Origin: Lingula anatina
Lineage: Eukaryota > Animalia > Brachiopoda
NCBI GenBank assembly: GCA_051362555.1
Contig: CM120640.1
Span: 43,874,788-43,938,787 of the forward strand
Reading direction: 5' to 3'
Length of the DNA: 64,000 nucleotides
Shown here piece by piece: positions 35,801-38,526 of the stretch; positions within the stretch are counted from its first letter, which is position 1; the number at the start of each line of letters is the position of its first letter. A model generated the notes under the pieces. That model saw nothing but the letters and a program-made list of their open reading frames with translations, searched no databases and was not told the DNA's origin. The position numbers were made by a program, and so were the translations under genes.

Positions 35801-38526
35801 GATTATTTTTCCACAACTAAATAACAGTTAAATTTTTTAAGTTATTTCATTTTAATCCTTTCCACACGTTTTTCAAATACAGTGTTATAATTTCATTATA
35901 TGGTTTTGACAGGGATGTGTGAAAGTTTGGGACATAAGTCAACCAGGGAACAAGAGCCCAGTTTCCCAATTGGATTGCCTGGTAAGTGAAAACAAAAGCA
36001 TTTTTTTTTTGTCTTTAAACTGAGTTTATATAGGAAAATAATTTTATAATACTTAACTAACTTTACATGCTCATAACAAAAAGTATGTGAAATAATTTGT
36101 ATTATAAAATTATTTGATTTAAATTATTGAAAAGCTGAAGTTTTTCAGATTTATTCCTTTAATGTGATAGTTGCATATGAAAGTCATTAGAAATGATGAA
36201 ACTGTTTTTGTTGTTTTTCATATATCTTCTGCCACTGGCTTCATCTTCTATTTGCTTCACTTGCTCTTTTTCTCCTTTTCCACTCCCTGAAGAGTTGTTT
36301 TGCATCTTTTCTCACCTTTTGGGGTTGGCTTTTATTTTTATAGCCACGTGACAACTACATCCGCTCTGTGCGGCTCCTCCATGACGGCCATACCTTAGTC
36401 GTTGGTGGAGAAGCTTCAACTCTCACCATTTGGGACTTGGCCGCTGTAAGTCTCTTCCTTTTTTGTATAAATTCCCCCTTGGACAACTCCCTTGTAACAT
36501 GTCCTGTACTTTTCAGCAACGGGACAACTATATTCGCTCAATCAAACTGCTAAAAGATGGTAGGACACTGATAGTTGGAGGGGAAGCCAGTACATTGTCA
36601 ATATGGGATCTTGCTGCAGTGAGTGGTGTTGTGTGATCTCAGAACCAAAGAAAATTATCAAAGATACATATCTTGATATTAAAAAAAAAATGATCCAAGA
36701 CTGGCTTGACAGGAGAAGAATAGGTTTATTACCATTTTTTAAGTTTCACAGAAAAAAATAATGTTCATCAAAGACATATTTTTAAAAAGCACAAAAAATG
36801 AGGCCTTCACATTTAGCTTGACACTTCACACATTAGTAGTATTTCACTGAATATACGCGATCGAGATCCATTTCTTCATATTTTTTTTTCTTAACACTTT
36901 ACATTTTCTTCCAGCCTACTCCTCGTATTAAAGCTGAGCTGACCTCCAGTGCCCCAGCATGCTACGCGCTTGCCATAAGCCCAGACTCCAAGGTGTGCTT
37001 TAGCTGCTGCAGTGATGGCAACATTGCTGTCTGGGACCTCCATAATCAAACGCTAGTCAGGTATGTAGTCATTTTTTTTATTGTATCGAAAGTGTACAGG
37101 AATTTACTTAATTCAATTCTGACTCCATTTATTTCTGTCATTCTCAACAATTACTATTACTTGATCTTTTTCTTCACTTTTCTGAATCCAAATTATCAGT
37201 TGCATGCATTCTTTGTCTTTCTGGTTGGTAAAAAAGTGTTTATGTATAGGCCAGTTAAAATTTTACAAGGATGTTACAGGTGTTTGAAAGAAATGTAAGC
37301 ACGTTATTGAAAAAAATTCAACAAGATTTAAGAATTCAGAAATTTAATTTCTCAAAGATATTAGATTTCTTAACCTCATGGTTTTCATGAAGTGAATTAG
37401 TTTTGTTGAGAACATTACCCAATTTTAAACTCTTTAAACCCTTCTACTCAGGTGGGTCTTTAAATTTTTTTTTTTAATACAAGCATAATAAGATCAAAGT
37501 ATAATTCCAAATAAATTTTCATTGTAGACAATTTCAAGGGCACACAGATGGCGCTAGTTGTATAGACATCTCCCCAGATGGCACAAAACTGTGGACAGGA
37601 GGATTGGACAATACTGTTCGCTCATGGGACCTCAGAGAGGGTCGCCAGTTGCAACAACATGACTTTACTTCCCAGATCTTTTCTCTGGGCTACTGTCCTA
37701 CTGGAGAATGGCTGGCCGTGGGGATGGAGAGTAGTAATGTGGAAGTGCTACATCATTCTAAGCCAGACAAGTATCAGCTGCATCTTCATGAGAGTTGTGT
37801 GTTGTCACTGAAGTTTGCATATTGTGGGAAGTGGTTTGTGAGCACAGGAAAAGATAACCTGCTGAATGCTTGGAGGACACCATATGGTGCTAGCATATTC
37901 CAGGTAAGGTGGATCACTTGGAGGCAGTATTGCATATTTACTTTTGATTTAACTGTAATTGGCCAAGTATTAAGATTTTCTGCCAACGATTTCTGCTTCT
38001 ATAAAGAAAAGAAGGGTCATTCAAGAAAATGTGAGAATAAAGTGGGCAGAGGGTGGCCACTTGGCATCCACAATGCCACTGATGAAAATTTGGCAACATG
38101 ATTTTTTCAAAAAATGGCCTAAAAATCTCATATTTGTTTGCTGATTCTTAGACATTTTGTCATATGTTGAAATTAAAAAGCTTGTTTGTCAAAGGGGTAT
38201 TATAATTTTGTTTGGGTAGGGTGGAAAAGAGGTTCTGCCTTATTCAGAATTGCTGTTCAAATTCCTCACTGAGTTTTTTTTATATAAAAAGTAGAAATGT
38301 TTTGTCAATTTTATTAATTGAATTGAAAAGACAAATTCAATACTTCATAACAGAAGTAAAATTGATAAAGTGGATGCAATTTGAAAATTTCTAATATTTT
38401 TCTCTCTTTTCATTTTAGTCCAAGGAGTCCTCTTCTGTTCTCAGTTGTGACATATCTGCAGATGACAAGTATATTGTTACTGGATCAGGTGATAAAAAAG
38501 CAACACTCTACGAAGTCATATTTTAA
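14886..38526 (+). CDS. gro/TLE: Groucho/TLE (transducin-like enhancer of split) transcriptional co-repressor, full-length, 735 aa
   Basis: Hand-spliced exons, all GT-AG and phase-consistent: 14886-14906 (MYPNRHP), 15159-15256, 15550-15613, 16374-16418, 22697-22759, 23771-23845 (Q domain, e.g. [16 protein letters not shown]...[15 protein letters not shown]...ELNAIIG), 24849-25020 (GP), 25238-25260, 31440-31544, 31921-31974 (CcN: KKRR and [18 protein letters not shown]), 32326-32466, 33990-34104, 34444-34631, 34990-35051 (SP), 35342-35522, 35913-35981, [36344-36445 or 36517-36618], 36915-37060, 37528-37903, 38419-38526 (WD40, ending [14 protein letters not shown]). Total 2208 nt including the stop. 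Confidence 0.98.
25238..25260 (+). CDS. gro/TLE: Groucho 23-nt microexon (PPASEDRH) between the GP and CcN regions
   Basis: TTTCTTTTTAG acceptor and GTAAGT donor. It bridges the phase-1 end of exon 24849-25020 to the phase-0 start of exon 31440-31544. Confidence 0.85.
36344..36445 (+). CDS. gro/TLE: Groucho WD40 alternative exon A ([34 protein letters not shown])
   Basis: Long polypyrimidine tract and TAG acceptor at 36341-36343; 102 nt open, phase 0-0; GTAAGT donor at 36446; 27/34 aa identical to exon B. Confidence 0.9.
36517..36618 (+). CDS. gro/TLE: Groucho WD40 alternative exon B ([34 protein letters not shown])
   Basis: TTTTCAG acceptor ending 36516; 102 nt open, phase 0-0; GTGAGT donor at 36619; closer to the canonical TLE sequence ([32 protein letters not shown]). 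Confidence 0.93.

Follow-up and report, generated by a model that had tools for sequence, protein, structure and literature searches.

The Groucho gene of Lingula anatina contains a real, expressed and old pair of homologous mutually exclusive exons (A and B), a class of event that is well known. In our best explanation, to which we give a probability of about 0.68, they constitute an either/or exon within one blade of the WD40 domain, the short spacer between them likely forces the choice, and the binding pocket is kept while its rim and the bottom face of the propeller are changed. The window, i.e. the whole stretch of DNA analysed, comprises 64,000 nt (GCA_051362555.1, CM120640.1 positions 43,874,788-43,938,787, forward strand), and all coordinates are window positions. 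The relevant features are:

14886..38526, plus strand: Groucho/TLE gene with 20 coding exons in each isoform; the protein has 722 aa whichever of A and B is used
35913..35981, plus strand: shared upstream exon, 69 nt, ending in phase 0, supported by junction reads
36344..36445, plus strand: exon A (minor), 102 nt, phase 0, 34 aa, with 34 upstream and 32 downstream junction reads
36446..36516, plus strand: spacer intron between exons A and B, 71 nt, no joint removing it listed
36517..36618, plus strand: exon B (major), 102 nt, phase 0, with 477 upstream and 193 downstream junction reads
36915..37060, plus strand: shared downstream exon, starting with strand d of the exon pair's blade and including the equivalents of R565, E569 and T571

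Every region of the host protein aligns to named Groucho/TLE proteins, with an N-terminal Q domain and a C-terminal seven-blade WD40 domain, and TLE1 is the top solved-structure match for exons A and B (E 8e-17 and 2e-14; PDB 1gxr, 2ce8, 2ce9). RNA confirms the joints of the gene model between 34400 and 38000, while the 5' exons rest on homology and splice signals only. Short RNA-seq reads were taken from eight of nine runs with the same species label, from three studies (about 6% of the reads in every large run, 25-30% in smaller runs), and a joint was listed only with at least 3 reads from 2 starts, a floor under which rarer events may escape. Both isoforms exist as spliced RNA and B dominates. 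Summed over the eight runs, exon A is entered (35981>36344) by 34 reads and left (36445>36915) by 32, exon B by 477 (35981>36517) and 193 (36618>36915), with GT..AG borders and short-side overlaps of up to 75 nt. All four joints that connect each exon to both shared flanks are present in RNA, and neither the A-to-B joint (36445>36517) nor the one skipping both exons (35981>36915) is listed in any of the eight runs at this floor. A first-pass annotation of this DNA had proposed mutual exclusion from the letters and named the junctions to be counted, and the counts bear it out: exons A and B are mutually exclusive in Groucho transcripts, which we state with high confidence. Exon A accounts for 66 of 736 junction reads (about 9%; 7% by upstream and 14% by downstream joints) and B for the other 670. 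Reads of A come from four of the eight runs and two of the three studies, its upstream joint having 12, 17, 4 and 1 reads in X1, X2, X3 and X9 (none in X4, X5, X7 and X8) and its downstream joint 17, 9, 5 and 1 in the same runs; the four runs without A are shallow, with 3-19 B reads each and 44 together. In the three deep runs, whose sample types are coded, the share of A is 12.7, 10.0 and 4.9% (p 0.03 with joints pooled, 0.11 for upstream joints only).

The coordinates and translations that had been claimed for both exons are exact, as are the length of 102 nt, phase 0 and the 71-nt spacer, and each exon is bordered by AG/GT splice sites. A and B share 27 of 34 residues and 61 of 102 nt; among the 27 codons of identical residues only 6 are identical, and one serine is switched between TCA and AGT. 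We reproduced this codon pattern, from which saturated silent sites had been read, and obtained a pS of 1.00 against a pN of 0.19. Together with the annelid counterparts described below, these values uphold the earlier view of an old duplication with both copies retained. A similarity search within the window returns exon A for exon B at E=5e-16, while the other Groucho exons of at least 10 codons have no credible duplicate there (two stray matches, E 0.018-0.023). Exon B is close to the usual bilaterian sequence in the peptide comparison. As adjacent homologous exons of equal length and phase, the two belong among homologous mutually exclusive exons.

Annelid Groucho genes have a similar pair in the same exon, with A-then-B order, Pro1 and a non-basic residue 16 in A, and a similar spacer. 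Models of Paralvinella palmiformis (KAK2164432.1) and Lamellibrachia satsuma (KAI0220257.1, recovered by cluster look-up) contain an A-type followed by a B-type segment in one chain, the Capitella teleta (ELT92095.1) and Ridgeia piscesae (KAK2182510.1) models hold the A type alone, and the full-length protein P0014 has the A type between normal flanks. Unlike in Lingula, where reads show exclusivity, the two annelid tandem models wrongly join both exons, and annelid A is further diverged (25/34 residues shared between A and B in Paralvinella, 27/34 in Lingula). A junction-spanning protein search (67 matches among 307 candidates) found no tandem A/B model among its representatives. A genomic ORF sample yielded 20 short ORFs with B and its acceptor, perhaps from one clade and biased to short, stop-free spacers; 10 have at least 90 nt upstream, and in six of them the upstream stretch is compatible with an A end located 60, 65, 66, 68, 71 or 74 nt before B (two read in frame, four in shifted frame), while four show none. 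The shuffle control passes 36 of 4000. Named bivalve models contain B only (16/16, 5 species), and 78 metagenome loci, mostly spliced or intronless, gave 0 A/B pairs, 75 single B-type segments and 3 empty loci. The vertebrate TLE proteins examined have one copy of the segment; vertebrates diversify TLE via paralogues. In Macrostomum lignano there are two Groucho paralogues (P0009 and P0164) with segments partly like host A (R10, H13) and B (K10, Q13), which possibly reflects isoforms split between genes, or chance. Double matches in Ephemera and Diaphorina were rejected as exon pairs, being identical block repeats.

How the choice between A and B is enforced can be narrowed down from the gene structure. 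In conceptual splicing of the gene model, transcripts with both exons and with neither stay in frame and contain no stop, so nonsense-mediated decay cannot enforce the choice, and a decay-enforced pair, in which joint inclusion would shift the frame, is ruled out. Steric interference below about 50 nt, on the other hand, is an established mechanism. The 71-nt spacer is the shortest intron of the gene (the other 19 measure 217-6278 nt), has no yUnAy match and lacks an AG from the donor region to the acceptor. All of its adenosines at least 18 nt from the acceptor lie at intron position 54 or lower, which leaves candidate branch points at positions 22-26, 38-41 and 51-54, the best of them (51-54) at the threshold of about 50 nt. 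The branch point of exon B would then lie within about 50 nt of the A donor and the two exons could not be joined; judged from sequence, the spacer is probably too short to be spliced and would enforce the choice sterically. Against this stands that many invertebrates do remove introns of 71 nt. A threshold of about 50 nt for the distance from donor to branch point is given in passages of PMC5740500 and PMC7969005. The sterically enforced pairs OGDH 4a/4b and alpha-tropomyosin, as portrayed in part of PMC7969005, likewise have a short intervening intron, one that stays short across species. Their branch points are mapped and lie around 50 nt or less from the donor, whereas those of the Lingula spacer are only inferred, and in Lingula the entire intron is short, whereas in the OGDH/alpha-tropomyosin type the branch point is distant instead, again according to that part of PMC7969005. 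For competing base-paired elements of the docking/selector kind, a simple scan for complementary sequence, run without chance control or conservation test, turned up nothing beyond short, AT-rich perfect complements and a single 9-mer (36234 with 36583).

The exon corresponds to TLE1 528-561 if residue 770 is taken as the last of the 337-residue chain; this numbering also reproduces R565, E569 and T571, residues named in PMC13308096, in the next exon. The strand layout comes from a predicted model of P0014, a related A-type protein and not host A itself (pLDDT about 76-89 in the exon region), which superposes on TLE1 2ce8 with a TM of 0.95 over the target. In this model strand a covers exon positions 5-11 and strand b 17-23, with the a-b loop (12-16) between them, and strand c follows at 27-31. 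According to passages of PMC3419727, a-b loops form the bottom face of WD40 propellers and the R1-2, R1 and D-1 positions are top-face hotspots, which in this blade are the equivalents of Y532, R534 and E550; the same paper gives Y532 as a contact of WRPW, and part of PMC13308096 reports the R534A mutant to be defective in transcription-factor binding. All three residues are retained identically in host A and B, as had been claimed. For E550 we presume a contact role in the pocket, its D-1 position being the only backing. The earlier placement of the exon pair in the pocket holds in that the exon carries pocket residues and fails in that those residues do not differ between A and B. Their constancy across the wider peptide set (59 distinct peptides from 324 records, 8 of A type as defined by Pro1 and 51 others) follows in part from the search pattern, and we therefore do not count it as evidence. 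Among the seven differences between A and B, V9, H13, V19 and T28 fall within ordinary non-A variation, R10 is uncommon (3/51), and P1 and H16 of host A lie outside it; mapped on the P0014 model, most changes fall in the bottom loop and the core. The form with A is predicted to keep the WRPW/eh1 pocket and to alter the rim and the bottom surface, and two traits are conserved among A copies, a proline at the rim and the loss of a positive charge from the bottom face.

The age and origin of exon A can be weighed from the same material. The minor use of A and its absence from half of the runs might suggest a pseudo-exon in decay or an error of assembly, yet this is refuted by the 66 precise junction reads that cover both sides of A, and the open frame, the limited nucleotide identity with B (61/102) and the annelid counterparts leave this idea with practically no chance. 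We consider it quite likely from the peptide comparisons that the A/B pair descends from one duplication shared with annelids, after which B would have stayed ancestral and A would have acquired proline at 528 and given up its basic residue at 543. None of the 8 A peptides has a basic residue at position 16, whereas all 51 others do, and the combination of Pro1 with loss of this basic residue occurs in none of the 51 non-A peptides, A being defined by Pro1. In the best exon tree (32 of the 59 peptides) host A groups with the other seven A copies (SH-aLRT 97), and the pairs agree in order, in the second copy being the major or ancestral one and in spacer length (60-74 vs 71 nt). Duplication of the exon independently in the host lineage and in annelids, with the shared proline and order as convergence in an easily duplicated phase-0 exon, fits other observations: a tree forced to unite the two host exons survives the AU test (p-AU 0.46, 34 columns), host A has none of the annelid A changes at positions 12, 13, 14, 26 and 28, and it is about as similar to annelid A (28/34) as to several B peptides (28-29/34). 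The lack of A in all the bivalve models points the same way, as does the absence from the host protein of four characters of named annelids (Q115, D237, C448 and a 17-residue insert). Set against the common tree, order and residue pair, we regard two origins as rather improbable. A Groucho tree without the duplicated segment (FastTree, 41 sequences) places the host with bivalves (0.885), and at 26 sites that separate annelids from bivalves the host matches annelids at 12 and bivalves at 5. With a single origin and a host lineage outside annelids, the pair would predate the split between the two, which is Cambrian or earlier.

What exon A does is less firmly placed, and a distinct function is only slightly favoured. 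Groucho is a tetramer, so the minor A form would be mixed into complexes, where it would tune side- or bottom-face contacts or blade stability and not the choice of motif. A redundant spare without a distinct role, shielded from harmful changes solely by its presence in about one transcript in ten, would account for the low inclusion of A (5-13% in deep runs), for four of the seven differences lying within ordinary variation, for the unchanged pocket and for the apparent absence in bivalves, which suggests that A can be lost. On the other hand, A was retained through silent-site saturation, annelid A copies share changes at positions 12 and 14, otherwise invariant in the 51 peptides, that look like a selected distinct form, and the share of A varies among the three deep runs in the pooled though not the upstream-only comparison; we hold the spare copy to be unlikely, if a serious contender. 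It is highly doubtful that A alters which motifs the WRPW/eh1 pocket prefers or how the pocket responds to pH. The proline at 528 belongs to the linker that leads into Y532 and might displace the top-face rim, but the three hotspot positions are the same in host A and B. The pH idea of the first-pass annotation built on the K/R-to-H swaps, both located in the a-b loop of the bottom face; at these positions the annelid A copies carry N13 and T16 (7/7), His13 occurs in 6/51 non-A peptides and Lys13 is an oddity of host B (1/51). The idea fails, since histidine is not what the A copies conserve. More far-reaching is a regulated lophotrochozoan switch, older than the separation of annelids from the host lineage, in which the second WD40 form, with its different rim and bottom face, alters a non-pocket partner such as the FBXL14 ligase; we think this improbable. 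FBXL14 binds TLE1 via residues on strand d of the exon pair's blade, according to part of a 2026 preprint (PMC13308096); they are encoded by the shared downstream exon, which makes any influence of A on the contact no more than a lead. If true, it would mean isoform-level control of co-repressor turnover that is lacking in vertebrates and flies.

The preferred reading, an either/or exon that leaves the pocket intact, concerns one of the most conserved parts of the developmental toolkit, the Groucho WD40 domain, which is commonly regarded as invariant. Since an alternative blade has been kept for so long, at least some spiralians produce two Groucho forms, which current gene models hide or mis-join. 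The pair further offers a natural set of variants for probing non-pocket propeller surfaces, and the 71-nt spacer a compact test case for steric exon exclusion. No description of the Groucho A/B pair was found in a literature search whose scope ended before subscription journals and exon-catalogue supplements. Catalogues of tandem-duplicated mutually exclusive exons, as far as their main texts go, are mainly human (Hatje et al. 2017, PMC5740500; PMC9741552), unlike the Lingula pair, which is in a developmental co-repressor of an invertebrate; 'TLE' is missing from the main texts of both, the supplements being outside this scope.

Several minor observations concern the host gene and its surroundings. 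The gene model includes a 23-nt micro-exon (25238-25260) that is required for the frame between its flanking exons and comes from the model, not from reads. An alternative donor (34632-34667) adds 12 in-frame residues in the Ser/Pro-rich region and is used in 57 of 142 joints in X2. Another, 4 nt downstream of the usual one (35523-35526), causes a frameshift with a stop inside exon B, a likely decay target, and is used in 8/190 joints in X1, 9/272 in X2, 8/186 in X3 and 5/9 in X8. The conserved 17-residue insert of named annelid Grouchos (P0019, P0016, P0228) follows the Q domain and has no credible match in the window. Over 34400-38000, reads of X7-X9 show fixed mismatches to the window in several exons, none of them listed in exon B, and these runs likely represent another population or strain. 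Beyond the gene, a short frame on the minus strand (42063-42236) resembles part of a small conserved protein, presumably UPF0235-like, with no match in Pfam, and a rhodopsin-family GPCR exon (7tm_1, E 1e-15) lies at 60984-61760 on the minus strand.
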